From sequence record KM389307.1: DNA of 5,624 bases, one strand, 5' to 3'. Origin of the DNA: Escherichia phage Phi06_2974 B. Below the pieces are notes generated by a model. It ran no database searches. It was not told the origin of the DNA and worked only from the letters and a program-made list of their open reading frames with translations. The position numbers and the translations under genes are program-made. Shown here one piece after another: positions 1 through 5,624 of the stretch (its first letter is position 1; each line of letters opens with the position of its first letter).

Positions 1-80
1 TCTGATGCGCCGCGCGATAAATGCGCCCATTTCCGTGAGATAAATGGCACCGCTGCGGCGTTTCAATATTTGAAAAAGAA

Positions 81-662
81 TTACAATCCTACCGCGTCAT
101 CCTTCCTCTGACTATCTACCGGAAAATACCGGTAGAGCGTCGATAACCCCACCCCGTAGATAATGGCCAGTTGCTGGCGGGTATGCCCCTTAGCCAATAG
201 CCGCCCAATCTGTTCTCGCTCATGAGGCTTTAATGCGTTGGGCCTTCCACCTATGCGTCCCTGTGCTCTGGCTGCTGCTAACCCGGCCAATGTTCGTTCG
301 ACGATCAACTCACGTTCCATTTCCGCCAGTGCCGACATCACATGGAAAAAGAAACGCCCCATGGCAGTGCTGGTATCAATACTGTCTGTTAAAGAGCGGA
401 AGTGGGCACCGCGTTCATGTAACTCTGATATCAGTGCGATCAGGTTCTTAACGCTGCGCCCCAGCCTGTCCAGTTTCCACACGACCAGGGTGTCTCCGCT
501 ATTAACGCACTTTAAAGCGCGTTTCAGACCGGGGCGGCTGGCAACTTTTCCGCTCATACGGTCTTCAAAAATGCGGTCACAGTTTGCGCTTATGAGTGCA
601 TTACGCTGTAAATCGCTGTTCTGGTCGATTGTTGATACGCGGATATAACCAATGACGGCCAT
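81..662 (-). CDS. Serine recombinase, DNA invertase of the Hin/Gin/Cin/Pin (Din) family, 193 aa
   Basis: Translation from the ATG at 662-660 begins [23 protein letters not shown]... with the catalytic-serine motif (YIRVST), the conserved [15 protein letters not shown] and [32 protein letters not shown] blocks, and a C-terminal HTH region (LSTLYRYF). A strong SD (GAGGAGGAG, plus 668-676) sits 5 nt upstream. The ORF-track start at 731 is a TTG and would read through the crossover site; I reject that extension. Confidence 0.9.
575..640. promoter_or_regulatory. Predicted Fis-dependent recombinational enhancer (sis-like) inside the 5' end of the invertase gene
   Basis: In Hin/Gin/Cin systems the enhancer lies within the first ~150 bp of the invertase coding sequence, with two Fis sites about 48 bp apart. 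Here, in coding orientation, GTATCAACAATCGAC (plus ~624-638) and AAGCGCAAACTGTGA (plus ~578-592) occupy the equivalent positions, about 46 bp apart and about 105 bp from the left crossover centre. Assignment is by positional and sequence analogy to my recollection of the hin enhancer. Confidence 0.45.
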
Positions 663-689
663 CAATTCTCCTCCTCTATGTCGCGGTGG

Positions 690-720
690 GAGGATTTTTA
701 CAGATTTCGCTATGTGTAAC
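690..720 (-). promoter_or_regulatory. Possible weak sigma70 promoter for the invertase, adjacent to the left crossover site
   Basis: On the minus strand, GTTACA (-35-like) then a 15-nt spacer then TGtAAAAAT (extended -10-like) lie upstream of the invertase SD. Match to consensus is poor and spacing suboptimal. Confidence 0.2.
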
Positions 721-724
721 CGCT

Positions 725-750
725 TTTCCAAAAACCTTGGTTTGGGAGAA
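725..750. repeat. Left crossover site (hix/gix-like, 26 bp): TTTCCAAAAACC-TT-GGTTTGGGAGAA
   Basis: Two 12-bp half-sites ending in AAACC flank a TT core at 737-738. Positions 731-751 are a perfect 21-bp inverted repeat of 2559-2579. Half-sites resemble the Din-family consensus as I recall it (hix TTATCAAAAACC / TTCTTGAAAACC). Confidence 0.8.
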
Positions 751-1089
751 GCGGCTAAAAGGAATGTAGGGACAGGGGCGAATCAGATACCTGATATGGG
801 TAGCTTCACGCTTTCTGTTTCAGGTACTGGATATCAAAAATTACCATCAGGTTTTATTCTTCAGTGGGGCTCAATCGGCGCTCCAGGCATTGCACAGGAT
901 GTAGTAACCCATTTCCCGATTGCATTTCCAAACAGATGTCTGCGTGTTTTGGTCTCACAAGACTACACACCAGATAGCGGGGCTGTTGGTTATATTGCCT
1001 GTGCAGGTTTTAGTCCCGACCCGGTTAAATTTATATCCAGAGCCAGTACTCCTGGCCTCGGCGCTTCATTTTTAGCGTTAGGCTGTTAA
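751..1089 (+). CDS. Silent alternative tail-fiber C-terminal cassette (Hv'), no start codon of its own in this orientation
   Basis: The frame is open through the left crossover site, where it encodes F-S-K-N-L-G-L-G-E (724-750), matching F-L-Q-N-L-G-L-G-E in H. The variable-specific part runs 751-1089 with TAA at 1087-1089. It is followed 21 bp later by an SD and a tfa-like gene, mirroring the active H-tfa arrangement. Confidence 0.65.
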
Positions 1090-1110
1090 TTTAGCTATAT
1101 GGAGTGAAAA

Positions 1111-1551
1111 ATGAATTACATATATTCCGCGACTACAAACTCTTTCTATCCGCTGGAGATGAAAGAGGATTACACTCAAGCTGACTCATGGCCAGATGAT
1201 GCTGTTGAAGTTGATGAGCAAGTGTATATTGAGTTTTCCGGATTACCGCCGAAAGGAAAAATCCGTATCGCTGGAGAAAATGGTTTTCCTGCATGGTCTG
1301 AAATTCCACCACCAACACATGAGGAACAGATTGCTGCAGCCGAACTGGAAAAGCAGCAACTGATTAATCAGGCCAACGATTATATGAACAGTAAACAATG
1401 GGCTGGTAAAGCGGCTATTGGTCGTCTGAAAGGTGAGGAACTGGCGCAATATAATTTGTGGCTGGATTATCTGGACGCACTGGAGCTGGTCGATACTTCC
1501 GGTGCGCCAGATATTGAATGGCCTACGCCTCCGGCAGTTCAGGCCAGATGA
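1111..1551 (+). CDS. Tail fiber assembly protein (Tfa/gpG/U-like chaperone), alternative copy paired with the silent cassette
   Basis: ATG at 1111 preceded by GGAG (1101-1104). The 146-aa product has an acidic N-terminal half and the C-terminal motif APDIEWPTPP characteristic of Tfa chaperones. Position immediately downstream of a tail-fiber C-terminal cassette. Confidence 0.8.
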   Translation: MNYIYSATTNSFYPLEMKEDYTQADSWPDDAVEVDEQVYIEFSGLPPKGKIRIAGENGFPAWSEIPPPTHEEQIAAAELEKQQLINQANDYMNSKQWAGKAAIGRLKGEELAQYNLWLDYLDALELVDTSGAPDIEWPTPPAVQAR

Positions 1552-2116
1552 CATCCGGCGCGGTGCTGGTATCTGTTGCCGTCACCGCGTCAATGTAATC
1601 CAGCACAGCGTTAAGCCGGGTTGTTTCTGCCTGCGTCAGTTTCCGCCCGGCCTGTAATTTCAGCTGAATCAGACTAATGGAAGCCATTGCTGCATCAATC
1701 AGTGACTGGCGCTGTGCTTCTGCCGCTTCTACTGCGGCACTGTGTTGTGCCTCAGTATCTGTCACCCATTTCTCACCATCCCATTTATCATATGGCGTTA
1801 ACGGTGAAAGCGTGACATAACCGTTTTTGATGGCACCGATATAATCCACTGTAACAGCTGCGCCATTTTCGATTGAGTAAACAGTCTCATTGCGATGGTC
1901 CTCTTCATGGCTCCATCCCTTACCTGTAAATACAGCCACTTTTCCCGGAATGTTTTCGCCAGGGTCAATACCAGTGGAACAGGCGGGCATACTTACACCA
2001 GTATTAATATATTCATCAGACCAGCCCGTATATTCATACGTTACTGCATCATAATAAAAACAACGCATATCACCCGGCACTGTAGCCAGTCCATTTTCAT
2101 CAAAAACAGGTTTCAT
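1523..2116 (-). CDS. Tail fiber assembly protein (Tfa/gpG-like chaperone), copy expressed with the current H
   Basis: ATG (plus 2114-2116) overlaps the H stop as TAATG. The 197-aa product ends ...TAPDVIWPELPEA with the conserved Tfa C-terminal WP motif. Immediately downstream of H, as G follows H in P2. Confidence 0.85.
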   Translation of the reverse strand: MKPVFDENGLATVPGDMRCFYYDAVTYEYTGWSDEYINTGVSMPACSTGIDPGENIPGKVAVFTGKGWSHEEDHRNETVYSIENGAAVTVDYIGAIKNGYVTLSPLTPYDKWDGEKWVTDTEAQHSAAVEAAEAQRQSLIDAAMASISLIQLKLQAGRKLTQAETTRLNAVLDYIDAVTATDTSTAPDVIWPELPEA

Positions 2117-3060
2117 TATTTAGCCCTCACCAGAAAGTTAAATGCAATGTTACGTGGTCTGACGGCAATAAAATTAACACCATCTCCTACTGAGTTACTG
2201 GTGTACTGAAATCGAGAGAAACCTGGTTGGTGTGCTGATATTCCATCGTAATCAGCAATCGCATGGCCGGACCCTTCTGGATAATTACCGCCAAATTGCG
2301 ATAAAGCTGTTGCTGCCTGCCAGCTTAATAATGCTCGCCCACTGTCCGCCCCTCGCCCATCATCCCAGATACGAATGAAATCACCGCGGGCTTCAGGTAA
2401 TACCAGCGAAGGAAACACTTTTGCCAGCACAGGGTAATCAGAGGCAGAAAATTTCGCCCCGTTGAACTTCAAAAACACCATACTGGACCAGCTATCGATT
2501 ACAGTATTTGGCATTGCAGCGGACGGCCAGAAGAACGGAACGCCAATAGCTGGAGCACCTTCTCCCAAACCAAGGTTTTGAAGAAAGGCTGCCTTATCGG
2601 GAATATCCGCACCGTTCTGGTCTTTGGCCAGTTTCTCCGCCAGCTTGTTCAGCACTGTGGTCGCAAAGTTCGGATCGTTGCCAAGGGCATCAGCCAGCTC
2701 TTTCAGCGTATCCAGTGTTTCTGGGGCTGTACCTGCAAGCGCAGCAATCGCCCTCGCCACAAATTCTGTCGTCACCAGCTTTTTGCTGTTGTCATTAGCT
2801 GCAGGCGTGGGGGCTGTTGGCGTACCCGTGAATGTTGGGCTGGCCTTCGTCGCATACTGGGTATGCGGGTCGGCCGCTGCGATGTGTTTCGCGAGATCTG
2901 AACCGCCTTTTTCAACCTGCTGTTTCAGGTATGAAGTACGGCTGGCCAGCTGTTTAGCCTGACGGTTAGAAATTCCATCAGGCCCACCCAGTACGGGGTC
3001 GGAGACCTCAATCTGGTAGATGCCGTCTTCCCACTGCGGGGTTTCGGGTAGATTTGCCAT
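2116..3060 (-). CDS. Tail fiber protein (P2 gpH-like), 314 aa: constant N-terminal part plus currently joined variable C-terminus
   Basis: ATG at 3058-3060 with GGGAG about 9 nt upstream. Contains a Pro/Thr-rich linker (PTFTGTPTAPTPAA) and the motif LDTLKELADALGNDPNFATTVLNKLA, which matches the ALGNDPNFATT block I recall in P2 H and related fibres. Sits after baseplate genes J and I and before tfa. The stop overlaps the tfa start. Confidence 0.9.
   Translation of the reverse strand: MANLPETPQWEDGIYQIEVSDPVLGGPDGISNRQAKQLASRTSYLKQQVEKGGSDLAKHIAAADPHTQYATKASPTFTGTPTAPTPAANDNSKKLVTTEFVARAIAALAGTAPETLDTLKELADALGNDPNFATTVLNKLAEKLAKDQNGADIPDKAAFLQNLGLGEGAPAIGVPFFWPSAAMPNTVIDSWSSMVFLKFNGAKFSASDYPVLAKVFPSLVLPEARGDFIRIWDDGRGADSGRALLSWQAATALSQFGGNYPEGSGHAIADYDGISAHQPGFSRFQYTSNSVGDGVNFIAVRPRNIAFNFLVRAK
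2560..2585. repeat. Right crossover site (hix/gix-like, 26 bp): TTCTCCCAAACC-AA-GGTTTTGAAGAA, inside the H coding sequence
   Basis: Inverted copy of the left site with an AA core at 2572-2573 on the plus strand. On the minus strand it encodes residues F159-E167 (FLQNLGLGE) of H. Confidence 0.8.
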
Positions 3061-3062
3061 AA

Positions 3063-3641
3063 TTAACTGCTCCCGTGGTTATAGCTGCCGTCATAGTTGA
3101 CGGTGTTGTTGTAGCGAATGGCGGCAGACTGATACTCCAGGCTCGCCAGATGGCAGCGGGCCGGAGCAAAGGCAGCGAGCGTCTGGCGTAACAGAGCCGC
3201 CTGATCGTTAGTGATGGGCTGTTGAAGGATGACGCGATAGACCGCCCAGGCTTCCGCATCGCCGTGGACAAAAAGCCCGTTATAAGTGTGTTTGCCGTCG
3301 TATCCGATCTGGCCAGTGCCTTCAATCAGATCCACTTCGCCGAAGCCGAAACGGCGGATAATTTCCCGGATTGACCACGGCGTCCCTTTGTAGCGGTGCA
3401 ACTCGATAGCGGATTTGATAAGCGTGCGACGTACATCGTCTGACTCCGCCAGTTCCCAGCCGTCACCGAACAGCGAGAACTGTTCGCCCAGCCATGGCAG
3501 CGCAGAGCTGTCGACAATATCGACGAGGTAGACCATCAACACGCTCAGGTCGATGCTGTCCAGTCTTCCGGCCAGATTGCCCAGTGCCCTGAAGCTGATA
3601 TCACCCTCAAGTGCTGGCGGGAGTTTTAGCGTCTCAGCCAT
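3063..3641 (-). CDS. Tail/baseplate protein (P2 gpI-like), 192 aa
   Basis: Sits between the J-like and H-like genes as in P2. The likely true start is the ATG at 3639-3641 (GGGAG 6 nt upstream), overlapping the J stop by 8 nt; the ORF-track start at 3647 is a TTG two codons upstream. The P2 gpI call rests on gene order and approximate size. Confidence 0.8.
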   Translation of the reverse strand: MAETLKLPPALEGDISFRALGNLAGRLDSIDLSVLMVYLVDIVDSSALPWLGEQFSLFGDGWELAESDDVRRTLIKSAIELHRYKGTPWSIREIIRRFGFGEVDLIEGTGQIGYDGKHTYNGLFVHGDAEAWAVYRVILQQPITNDQAALLRQTLAAFAPARCHLASLEYQSAAIRYNNTVNYDGSYNHGSS

Positions 3642-4737
3642 CGACAACTCCCGTGATAGTTACGTTGATGGCGGTACAGTTAGCCCACTCATTCTCTGCA
3701 AGAACAACAAGTTCAAGGCCGGGTAGTTCAACCTGGTAAACACCGCTGACAGTCAACACGGCGTTAATTTGTCCGGGGACGATATCCACACCCAGCTTGG
3801 TTCTTCGGGCTGCAACCCAGTTCTGGATGGCGTTGTTTGCCTCGTCTTTTACCGAGTTTGCATCCTGATTGCGGTAGATGGTGATCTGGGCATCTATGGT
3901 GTAATCCACCTGCACGGGCGTTTTAGCCCGGACGGTATCAGTGAGCGGCCTGACTTTTTCGTCTGAGCAGAAGCTCTCTACCAGCGTGAGGATGCTGTCG
4001 TCCGGCAGGCCGGTACTGAGCAGTGGATACAGCTCTACGGTGCCCGGAACCGGGGAGAGCACGGCGACGTCAACGATGTTGGGATGGGCCTGCATGGCAT
4101 GAAAGCGGTATGCCATACGGCTTCCGGCATTTGTGAAAGACTCCGGGGCCAGTTTGATACGTTCCCGAAGTCTGTCATTGTCTTCCTGCTCTGAACCGCC
4201 AGAGCTGGCTGCCAGATTGGTTACCTGCAGGTCGACGTTATCAATCTCATCGAGCAACTGACTGACCTGCGCAGGTTGCCAGTCGTTGCCAGCGGCTCCT
4301 GGTTCGGTACAGGTGGCCGTGGCATTGACCAGCAGCAATCCGGCTTTCAGTACCACGTCCGTATCGGTGGCAAAAATAATGCTGTCGGAAGCGCTGACAC
4401 GGGTACCTGCCGGGATCAGCACATCAATGGCCAGTTCCTCATCCACGGAGAACTGGAGCGTGGTGGTAGCAGGCTGCGCGGCAAGGCGGTACACACCAAC
4501 CAGTTCACCGAGGTAGTCAATCATCGGCTCACGGGCAAAGGCGACCAGATTCTGTTTGGCCGCTTCCTGCGCCGCCACCCTGACCAGCATTTCACGGTAT
4601 GCCCACAGGTCAATCAGCAGGCGCTCAGCCTGAGCGGGGTACAGCGTTTTGCCGGTTGCAGCTTCGTACTGTGCAATCATTTCTGCCGTGATTTTGTCGG
4701 CATCACGTTCAATAAAGTCGGGTTCTGTCAGCGCCAT
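3634..4737 (-). CDS. Baseplate assembly protein J (P2 gpJ-like), 367 aa
   Basis: Long ORF with ATG at 4735-4737. Overlaps the W stop by 10 nt and the I start by 8 nt. Position between W and I matches the P2 V-W-J-I-H-G order. Family assigned by synteny and size. Confidence 0.85.
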   Translation of the reverse strand: MALTEPDFIERDADKITAEMIAQYEAATGKTLYPAQAERLLIDLWAYREMLVRVAAQEAAKQNLVAFAREPMIDYLGELVGVYRLAAQPATTTLQFSVDEELAIDVLIPAGTRVSASDSIIFATDTDVVLKAGLLLVNATATCTEPGAAGNDWQPAQVSQLLDEIDNVDLQVTNLAASSGGSEQEDNDRLRERIKLAPESFTNAGSRMAYRFHAMQAHPNIVDVAVLSPVPGTVELYPLLSTGLPDDSILTLVESFCSDEKVRPLTDTVRAKTPVQVDYTIDAQITIYRNQDANSVKDEANNAIQNWVAARRTKLGVDIVPGQINAVLTVSGVYQVELPGLELVVLAENEWANCTAINVTITGVVDG

Positions 4738-5075
4738 AGCAGCTCCTGAGTCCGGGTCTGTCCTTCAGAGCCTTTCCAGCTCACCCGGAGCGTAAGATGT
4801 TCGCCGTCGACGGCGGGTTTAACCGACATCAGCTGGCAGCGAGGCTCCCAGCGGCGGATGGCATCGACGGATTCGCGCACCACATGCGGGATAGCCCGGT
4901 CGATGGGCCAGTCGATATAAAGATGCAGATTGCTGCCGAACTCCGGGCGATGCGGGTCGCTGCCGCGAGGAGTTCGCAGGATGATTTGAATGGCCTGCCA
5001 GATATCATCCAGCCCCCGGACGATTTCGCCGGGGGCCTGCAGTGCCGGTTGCCAGAATACTGAGGTTGTTTTCAT
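4728..5075 (-). CDS. Baseplate assembly protein W (P2 gpW / T4 gp25-like), 115 aa
   Basis: Small protein of the size and position expected for gpW. ATG at 5073-5075. Lies between V and J. Confidence 0.8.
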   Translation of the reverse strand: MKTTSVFWQPALQAPGEIVRGLDDIWQAIQIILRTPRGSDPHRPEFGSNLHLYIDWPIDRAIPHVVRESVDAIRRWEPRCQLMSVKPAVDGEHLTLRVSWKGSEGQTRTQELLWR

Positions 5076-5076
5076 G

Positions 5077-5121
5077 GGGGCAGTATTGCCCCTGTGCGGG
5101 AACGCCGATATTAAAGGCGTT
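5077..5121 (-). other. Two short inverted repeats in the V-W intergenic region
   Basis: GGGGCA(gtat)TGCCCC at 5077-5092, directly abutting the W start codon, and AACGCC(n9)GGCGTT at 5101-5121. Neither is followed by a U-run on the mRNA strand, so they are not obvious intrinsic terminators. Confidence 0.3.
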
Positions 5122-5129
5122 TAAGAAGG

Positions 5130-5624
5130 TCAGTGGGAATGGTGATTGGAGTTCTGGCCGTCAGACAGCATGCTGCCTGTGGAGTGGGCATTGCCGTTGA
5201 TTTCAAGGTTACCGTTCACCGTGGTGGTATCAGCGGTCAAATCAATGGTTTTCCCCTTCAGGCTGATACCTACCGCAACCTCGATCACCACATGCTCGAT
5301 ACCTCCTTTGACCGTCAGCGTATGGGTCGCGCGGTTATAGCTGAACTCTGCGCCATCCGCGTATTTCGTGCCCCGGACGTTTTTGTCGCTGAACGGCGGT
5401 TTATCGACTTCTGAGTACACCGCGCCCAGAATGACACCATCCTCGCCGTTGGCATCGAGCAGCACCTCAACCTGCTCCCCCACGTCAGGGAGCCAGTAAT
5501 CCTTGTTATCCTGGGTATTGCGCTGTAGCACGTTAAGCCAGTTAGTGCGCAGGTTATCGCACTCAGGCAAACGAACGCGGGCCTGAACCTTGTCGGCATC
5601 GACGGCGCTGACCGTACCGACCTG
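5130..5624 (-). CDS. Baseplate spike protein V (P2 gpV-like); 5' end lies beyond the window edge
   Basis: The frame is open to the window edge (upstream residues QVGTVSAVDADKVQARVR continue into LPECDNLRTNWLNVLQ...). The P/DVGEQV motif, Gly-rich beta region and C-terminal HSTGSMLSDG resemble P2 gpV as I recall it. The ORF-track start at 5570 is an internal TTG. Confidence 0.85.
   Translation of the reverse strand, partial: QVGTVSAVDADKVQARVRLPECDNLRTNWLNVLQRNTQDNKDYWLPDVGEQVEVLLDANGEDGVILGAVYSEVDKPPFSDKNVRGTKYADGAEFSYNRATHTLTVKGGIEHVVIEVAVGISLKGKTIDLTADTTTVNGNLEINGNAHSTGSMLSDGQNSNHHSH

Follow-up and report, generated by a model that had tools for sequence, protein, structure and literature searches.

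A Hin-like DNA invertase and its invertible tail-fiber segment at the end of a BcepMu-like prophage

The 5,624-nucleotide stretch of Escherichia phage Phi06_2974 B that we analyzed (KM389307.1; the window) encodes an intact small serine DNA invertase of the Hin/Gin/Cin/Pin (Din) family, placed in its Hin sub-branch, beside a pair of crossover sites that enclose alternative tail-fiber sequences (Table 1). We regard it as very probable that this enzyme acts in cis on the 1.8-kb tail-fiber segment and that the two together form the host-range switch of a BcepMu-like prophage. The window holds the gene, both sites, and an alternative fiber that is in frame, and both orientations of such a segment occur in natural isolates with an identical invertase. 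The protein is an uncharacterised new member of a thoroughly known family, found with a tail-fiber switch of the G-segment type in a Mu-like prophage.

Table 1. Positions of the invertase module and of its neighbors in the window.
Feature	Coordinates	Strand	Remarks
End of the BcepMu-like transposable prophage, ~78 bp	3..80		minus-strand read ends ...GGCGCATCA at nt 3
Transposase-site-like motif	33-47		CCGTGAGATAAATGG; inverted copy at the other prophage end in the related element L015
Hin-like serine DNA invertase gene	81..662	minus	193 aa; ATG at 662, stop codon at 81-83
Putative recombinational enhancer	575..644	minus	nt 19-88 of the invertase gene, within its 5' end
Leader of the invertase gene, presumed to include the promoter	663..724	minus	read from sequence; contains the Shine-Dalgarno sequence
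Crossover site A	725..750		TTTCCAAAAACC TT GGTTTGGGAGAA; central dinucleotide 737-738
Invertible segment	738..2572		1,835 bp, site center to site center
Silent alternative tail-fiber C terminus	738..1089	plus	gp53-like C-terminal domain (Pfam Gp53-like_C, E 6.8e-15)
Alternative tail-fiber assembly chaperone, silent orientation	1111..1551	plus	146 aa; Caudo_TAP, E 7.4e-38; PHROG 188
Tail-fiber assembly chaperone, current orientation	1523..2116	minus	197 aa; Caudo_TAP, E 1.2e-27; PHROG 105
Variable C-terminal fiber part, current orientation	2116..2572	minus	within ORF 2116-3060
Crossover site B	2560..2585		TTCTCCCAAACC AA GGTTTTGAAGAA; inside the fiber gene, encodes ...QNLGLGE...
Constant N-terminal fiber part	2573..3060	minus	~162 aa; outside the segment

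The invertase gene and its product

The open reading frame obtained mechanically for the invertase spans positions 81-731 and begins at a TTG. We placed the start at the ATG at 662 from an alignment to Hin, Gin, Cin, Pin, and Fin, and a Shine-Dalgarno sequence, GAGGAGGAG, lies 5' of this codon at positions 668-676. ORF callers give wrong starts both for this gene and for the silent fiber fragment of the segment. A preliminary description of this DNA had assigned a Hin-like invertase to the interval from 81 to 750; that interval is correct and covers the gene with its leader as well as site A of the crossover pair. A scan of positions 1-3200 with the sigma-70 consensus returned no match 5' of the invertase, and the total number of matches was lower than in shuffled sequences.

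The protein contains a Resolvase domain (PF00239, E value of 2.6e-46) and, at residues 139-181, an HTH_7 domain (PF02796, E value of 1.6e-14); these two domains, together with 83-85% identity to Hin, bear out the designation "Hin-like". It also matches PHROG 125, "DNA invertase", with an E value of 1.4e-85, and the structure of the Hin DNA-binding domain (1HCR) matches its C-terminal part with an E value of 1.8e-17. As in the Din subfamily, a catalytic domain of the Ser10 type at the N terminus is followed by a C-terminal HTH of ~50 aa, and the total of 193 aa is close to the ~190 expected. In an NCBIfam scan, the Hin- and Din-specific models matched neither this protein nor true Hin, and the hits that were obtained came from distant serine-recombinase models far under their cut-offs; NCBIfam is thus no test of membership in this case. 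In public records, the protein is labeled "recombinase family protein" or, wrongly, "DNA-invertase Hin".

The invertase shares with Hin the catalytic residues Y6, R8, S10, D65, R66, and R69 as well as the regulatory residues M101 and H107. Residues K47, R48, K51, R154, and L155, which Hin needs for activation by Fis and the enhancer according to an eLife study (PMC3798978), are likewise those of Hin. The same is true of the GRP motif that contacts the minor groove (G139-R140-P141) and of the recognition helix, STLYRYFP. R142 of the GRPR DNA-binding motif of Hin is replaced by Asn; Gin has Pro at this position, which varies within the family.

A putative recombinational enhancer lies within the 5' end of the gene. 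This region is identical to the same stretch of hin at 56 of 70 nt (80%), and it includes two Fis-site-like 15-mers, at 624-638 and 575-589, each of which agrees with its hin counterpart at 13 of 15 positions and which keep the same spacing. The distance from the enhancer to the site center is 106.5 bp in the window and 103.5 bp in hin. The hin enhancer itself consists of two Fis sites within the coding region (PMC3798978), and the P7 record marks the cin enhancer at the corresponding place in its gene, nt 19-86. These similarities suggest that Fis may bind the 575-644 region, although, since the region is coding, protein conservation may account for part of its conservation.

Crossover sites and the tail-fiber segment

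Sites A and B are in inverted orientation and measure 26 bp each, written 12 + 2 + 12. Their segment-side half-sites are identical and their central dinucleotides are compatible, so that the window contains the pair of inverted 26-bp sites with matching central dinucleotides that characterizes Din systems. The half-sites of both fit the family consensus TTCTCCTAAACC, which was computed from six systems, and the core is AA/TT. The strongest inverted repeat of the window pairs 731-756 with 2554-2579 (26 nt, 92% complementary). In addition, AAACCNNGGTTT occurs twice in the window against an expectation of 0.19, two matches being reached in 3 of 200 shuffles.

The preliminary description had further proposed hix-like sites, and site A with its inverted partner B answers to that description: against sites taken from actual records, those of the window agree with hixL at 20-21 of 26 positions, and the fix sites of Fels-2 agree with hixL at 18-19 of 26. 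Agreement with the pix sites of e14 extends to 21-23 of 26 positions, and the sites of the e14 P segment share the inner half-site and core, TTCTCCCAAACC AA, exactly with the window. The e14 inverted repeats quoted in PMC12529663 recur in the window at 15/16 and 16/16 positions.

The fiber gene of the current orientation, ORF 2116-3060 on the minus strand, encodes a 314-aa protein that matches PHROG 3100, "tail fiber protein", with an E value of 3.5e-116, and its constant and variable parts meet at codon ~163. When positions 738-2572 were flipped in silico, the constant 162 codons were joined in frame to the opposite tip, yielding a 279-aa fiber with the gp53-like C terminus; a related E. coli locus, L002, expresses the counterpart fiber, of 281 aa. 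In the window, the gp53-like C terminus is promoterless and would be expressed only after inversion. The layout is that of a Mu-type switch, in which the segment encloses two alternative 3' fiber parts, each with its chaperone, and leaves the constant 5' part outside.

Both orientations are found in nature. The E. coli assemblies L002 and L003 both encode the identical invertase and have flanks that are 100% identical around a 1,845-bp middle that is inverted in one relative to the other and is 98.4% identical. The breakpoints fall inside the sites, where the alignments overlap. The window segment aligns to this pair at 94% identity over part of its length only, so that the natural pair represents a sister segment, and it is on this sister segment that actual inversion is observed. 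The constant fiber part is 99.6-100% identical in L002, L003, L005, and L006, regardless of the variable segment attached to it. A further relative, L001, has lost nearly the whole segment; 55 bp remain between its sites, and its fiber is truncated. Invertase-mediated recombination between two prophages was considered as the origin of this arrangement and rejected, as a deletion inside the segment, joined to a different tail module, is simpler.

The position of the module within the element fits a Mu-type phage. In ten loci, the common sequence stops at nt 3 of the window and is followed by several different host sequences; one insertion truncates nrfA, and another lies in a Salmonella pdu operon. 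This shared end places the invertase 78 bp from the end of the phage, as gin lies near the right end of Mu, and the element thus has the two features expected of this type, a transposable phage and an invertase near the phage end. L015, a related complete element, encodes a DDE transposase, a MuB-like ATPase, Mor, and a DUF935 portal, and its early and late regions are divergent; we take elements of this type to belong to the BcepMu-like family. Downstream, the minus strand carries baseplate genes I, J, W, and V, which are of the P2 type.

No record identical to the window was found among complete E. coli genomes and phage records, where the best matches were strain AREA_C483, with 96.7% identity over 84% of the window, and Klebsiella phage KP12, with 92%. 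One locus, L005, which was assembled from run SRR547791, matches window positions 3-5624 at 100% identity and occupies a different insertion site. At 90% identity, the protein cluster that includes the invertase has members from Citrobacter, Enterobacter, Cronobacter, and Salmonella. A copy with 98% identity comes from Salmonella, in which hix sites can be present in the same cell.

We propose the following mechanism for the switch. Invertase dimers would bind the inverted 26-bp sites A (725-750) and B (2560-2585), and the site-bound dimers would assemble into an invertasome together with Fis on the enhancer inside the 5' portion of the invertase's own gene. Cleavage at the central AA/TT via Ser10, followed by rotation and religation, would then invert the 1.8-kb segment. 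As a result, the constant 162 fiber codons would be joined to one of two C-terminal receptor-binding parts, each of which would bring its own assembly chaperone. We infer the biochemistry of these steps, as well as the dependence of the switch on Fis and the enhancer. The cis substrate fully explains the presence of the gene.

Possible action on other segments and alternative readings

The invertase is diffusible and its DNA-recognition elements are those of Hin; thus, it could probably flip other complete Din-type segments present in the cell. These would probably include e14-type P segments in E. coli, which is not known to have a hin/hix flagellar switch, and the H segment in Salmonella carriers. 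Judging from the identity and site comparisons, cross-reactivity with both hix-type and pix-type segments is likely. We see such action in trans as a plausible side effect of the cis function. A stronger claim would be that it is a significant function in itself, which drives host phase-variable loci or the switches of other prophages and alters flagellar phase or phage susceptibility, and this we consider unlikely.

The case for such a function draws on the recognition helix and Fis-contact residues identical to those of Hin, on window sites that are as close to hix as the fix sites of Fels-2 are, on the inner half-site and core shared with the e14 pix sites, and on the 98%-identical copies in Salmonella. 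There are also precedents. According to PMC3535392 and PMC4122451, both citing Kutsukake 2006, the H segment can be inverted by Fin of Fels-2 when Hin is absent, and the action of Fin on the Salmonella flagellar switch, which the preliminary description had named, is documented to that extent. Similarly, PinQ of prophage Qin flips the e14 P segment, which lies in another prophage, with a phage-resistance phenotype (PMC12529663), and the e14-type P segment has been tied to resistance to phage T2 in a 2025 paper.

E. coli genomes offer candidate substrates and further enzymes. A search of 5,426 complete E. coli genomes found the invertase, with nucleotide identity of at least 91%, in 24 records, and 13 of these 24 hold two to six Din-type invertase genes, where other invertase genes and sites in carrier genomes are given as counts of places per record. 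A 50-nt probe across site B detected site-B-like sequence in 2,052 of the 5,426 genomes, in up to nine places per genome, and several representative E. coli chromosomes hold more than one site-bearing locus. Yet the targets that were found are all of one kind. Across species-representative genomes of all species, the exact 20-mer TTCTCCCAAACCAAGGTTTT occurs in 14 stretches, 12 in Enterobacterales and two in unrelated MAGs; those that can be interpreted are found with tail-fiber or invertase genes, and none of the stretches was placed at a host phase-variable locus or next to a host gene such as flagellin. Overall, the further compatible sites open to inspection in the E. coli genomes and the species representatives are all at prophage tail-fiber loci, none of them at a host locus.

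Even at these loci, a contribution in trans would often be redundant, since co-resident segments usually come with their own invertase, as does the site-bearing locus of O157 Sp1, which has its own pinE. The mechanism sets another limit. Under Fis/enhancer control, the exclusive outcome is intramolecular inversion between two sites that form an inverted pair on the same supercoiled molecule (PMC3798978); unpaired sites would therefore be poor targets, and the requirement for an enhancer and the right topology restricts action to complete segments in cis. Finally, the gene already has a complete substrate beside it, which accounts for it fully. If action in trans is real, it adds to the evidence from Fin and PinQ for a cross-talking network of resident invertases, and the gain of a prophage could change the flagellar phase switching of Salmonella or the anti-phage defenses that E. 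coli derives from tail fibers. The hypothesis extends published behavior and would not surprise a specialist.

It is very improbable that the module is a decaying relic in which the invertase or its sites are dead and the segment is frozen. Many tail-fiber switches of E. coli prophages are cryptic, the relative L001 is without nearly all of its segment, and the sigma-70 scan detected no promoter for the invertase. Against this, the ORF is intact and every catalytic residue is kept, both sites are intact with matching cores, and both fiber alternatives are in frame, each with a chaperone. The exact protein, which comes from E. coli, is unchanged on at least 24 contigs with several insertion sites, and KP12, a deposited phage record, encodes an invertase that is 97.9% identical. 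Opposite orientations between identical flanks in L002 and L003 also point away from a frozen segment.

The idea that the protein acts as a resolvase, or as a recombinase associated with a transposon or prophage, and resolves cointegrates or excises DNA can be set aside as having next to no probability: it shares a superfamily with the gamma-delta and Tn3 resolvases and its gene lies at the end of a transposable element, but its closest solved structure is that of Gin (E value of 5e-80), with those resolvases far behind (1e-29 to 1e-24), Hin is 83-85% identical, the two simple 26-bp sites are inverted rather than direct and have no accessory res subsites, the enhancer-like region is conserved with hin, and a DDE transposase, the enzyme with which Mu-type phages transpose without needing a resolvase, is encoded by the complete relative L015. 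The host-range switch acting in cis remains the reading that we prefer, and as things stand, the main value of the analysis is the correct annotation of a textbook switch of this kind.

Relation to Hin and to other known invertases

For comparison with Hin, we used a real hin locus (L009), in which fljB and fljA adjoin the gene, and calculated identities from global alignments. The window invertase is 83% identical to this Hin, 67% to Gin of D108, 67% to PinE of e14, 66% to Fin of Fels-2, and 64% to Cin of P7; the identities of the latter four to Hin are 67%, 65%, 63%, and 62%, respectively. The window invertase is thus much nearer to Hin than the classical members are. In a large protein collection, its identity to the NCBI clusters named "flagellar phase variation DNA invertase Hin" is 84-85%. 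By these sequence identities of 83-85%, it is the closest phage-borne relative of Hin among those compared. In agreement with this, a rough neighbor-joining tree, built without bootstrap, groups Salmonella Hin with the prophage invertases of the window lineage, apart from Gin, Cin, Pin, and Fin.

At the nucleotide level, similarity to hin is 75% and covers the coding region only; a comparison of the hin locus with the window showed no similarity outside it. There is thus no evidence that other parts of the module have been retained in the H segment. It is conceivable, and we suggest it only tentatively, that the lineage represents the nearest phage relative of Hin and acts as a mobile, promiscuous flipper of resident Din-type segments, such as the e14-type P segment and the H segment of Salmonella, with the corollary that hin/hix would descend from a tail-fiber module of this sort. 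If the enzyme is promiscuous in this way, acquiring the prophage would alter the phage susceptibility of the host or its rate of flagellar switching. With its unusually high identity to Hin, the protein lends itself well to studies on the origin of the Salmonella flagellar switch.

The two systems nonetheless differ in their organization. Hin is in the same length register as the window invertase, and its sites have the same AA/TT core, but its C-terminal tail is different. The hin gene sits inside its own invertible segment of ~1 kb, whereas the window invertase gene lies outside its 1.8-kb segment. Hin's segment carries the fljBA promoter and belongs to a flagellar locus; the window segment, in contrast, carries the coding sequence of tail-fiber tips in a prophage context. 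A gene inside the segment and next to fljB, as expected of Hin proper, is not what the window shows, its neighbors being tail-fiber and baseplate genes. With such neighbors, and with the invertase outside the segment, the enzyme is "Hin-like" and not Hin.

Among prophage systems, the P segment of e14 has a similar size, ~1.8 kb, and follows the same logic of paired stf and tfa genes. PinE differs in its recognition helix, STLYKRFP instead of STLYRYFP, and e14, which is integrated at icd, is a defective element of the lambdoid kind, whereas the window prophage is a transposable phage. Fin of Fels-2 and PinQ of Qin are, like the window invertase, prophage-encoded Din-type enzymes next to tail-fiber genes, and PinQ has been reported to be only 38% identical to PinE (PMC12529663).

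Gin and the G segment of Mu and D108 share the layout of the window, that is, a constant fiber part, a site, opposed variable parts with their chaperones, a second site, and an invertase outside the segment. The enhancer of Gin lies within the 5' end of the invertase gene, as we propose for the window. The gix core, however, is GA/TC, compared with AA/TT in the window, and in Mu com and mom lie between gin and the phage end, whereas here the end is reached 78 bp past the invertase stop codon. The phage as a whole also differs from Mu: it is BcepMu-like, its early and late regions diverge, and its baseplate is of the P2 type.

Prophage end and insertion sites

The start of the window (1-80) is the extreme end of a transposable, BcepMu-like prophage. 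Comparison of loci L001-L008, L016, L018 and L015 places the element terminus at window nt 3, where the minus strand reads ...GGCGCATCA, and past this terminus the host DNA varies, with several distinct sequences among ten loci. Just inside the terminus lies the motif CCGTGAGATAAATGG. Since window nt 1-2 match the flank of none of the loci fetched, the source strain represents yet another insertion site. Host operons are interrupted by prophages of this family: in strain AREA_C483 nrfA is truncated (L018, 7663-8376), and a Salmonella assembly has the element inside its pdu microcompartment operon (L016, 718-10680).

Features of the prophage end, of site A and of the chaperone overlap in the window, and crossover sites of the related locus L001
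Feature	Position (nt)	Strand	Remark
Motif CCGTGAGATAAATGG	33-47		Inverted copy at opposite prophage end
Invertase ORF, TTG-731 start	81-731	-	Extends across its own crossover site
Plus-strand ORF	652-1089	+	Starts inside the invertase gene
18-nt inverted repeat	1461-1478 and 1587-1604		83% complementary; on both sides of the chaperone overlap
L001 inverted crossover sites	9832-9857 and 9913-9938		Only 55 bp left between them

Overlapping reading frames

The called extents of two ORFs around crossover site A, one on each strand, are artefacts of ORF calling. Of the plus-strand ORF, only 738-1089 is possible fibre coding sequence after inversion. The same overlap is present in the RefSeq annotation of AREA_C483 (L018, 6592-7011 versus 7001-7582). 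Elsewhere in the window, the genes for the two tail-fibre chaperones converge and share 29 nt at their 3' ends (1523-1551), and the inverted repeat around this overlap probably represents the conserved C-termini of both chaperones, encoded on opposite strands.

Other carriers of the invertase and its sites

In locus L001 (9400-10000) the invertase gene, site A and the prophage terminus match window 3-755 at 100%, and this stretch adjoins a different baseplate module. Its fibre is truncated to 179 aa, and the locus appears to have arisen from the invertible segment by deletion. In L001 the outer half-site, TTCTCACATACC, is identical to one in Fels-2, the prophage that carries Fin. In Erwinia sp. 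Eh17-17 (L024), the invertase is 95% identical and site A is identical. Two MAGs, one from Saprospiraceae and one from Bacillota (L030 and L032), each contain a single exact copy of the 20-nt site sequence, with no invertase inside the stretch examined around it; these two copies may reflect contamination or chance.

The related full element, L015 (NZ_CP132021.1), is a 40.5-kb record of E. coli JCH8249 labelled as a plasmid, and its content is a whole Mu-like prophage with flanking host genes (carbamate kinase, amidohydrolase and DUF1116). The JCH8249 chromosome (NZ_CP132020.1) has an invertase copy near 5,155,019-5,155,600, 78 bp from the end of the record. The "plasmid" and the chromosomal copy may be an assembly artefact or, alternatively, a replicative or duplicated copy.

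Relationship to Hin

In a neighbour-joining tree of invertases that includes proteins P0028, P0037, P0020 and P0019, constructed by that method only and unbootstrapped, Salmonella Hin clusters with invertases from prophages of Escherichia, Citrobacter, Enterobacter and Pantoea. Gin, Cin, Pin and Fin fall separately from this Hin group. This grouping hints that Hin, the flagellar switch enzyme, was derived from this lineage of prophage invertases.
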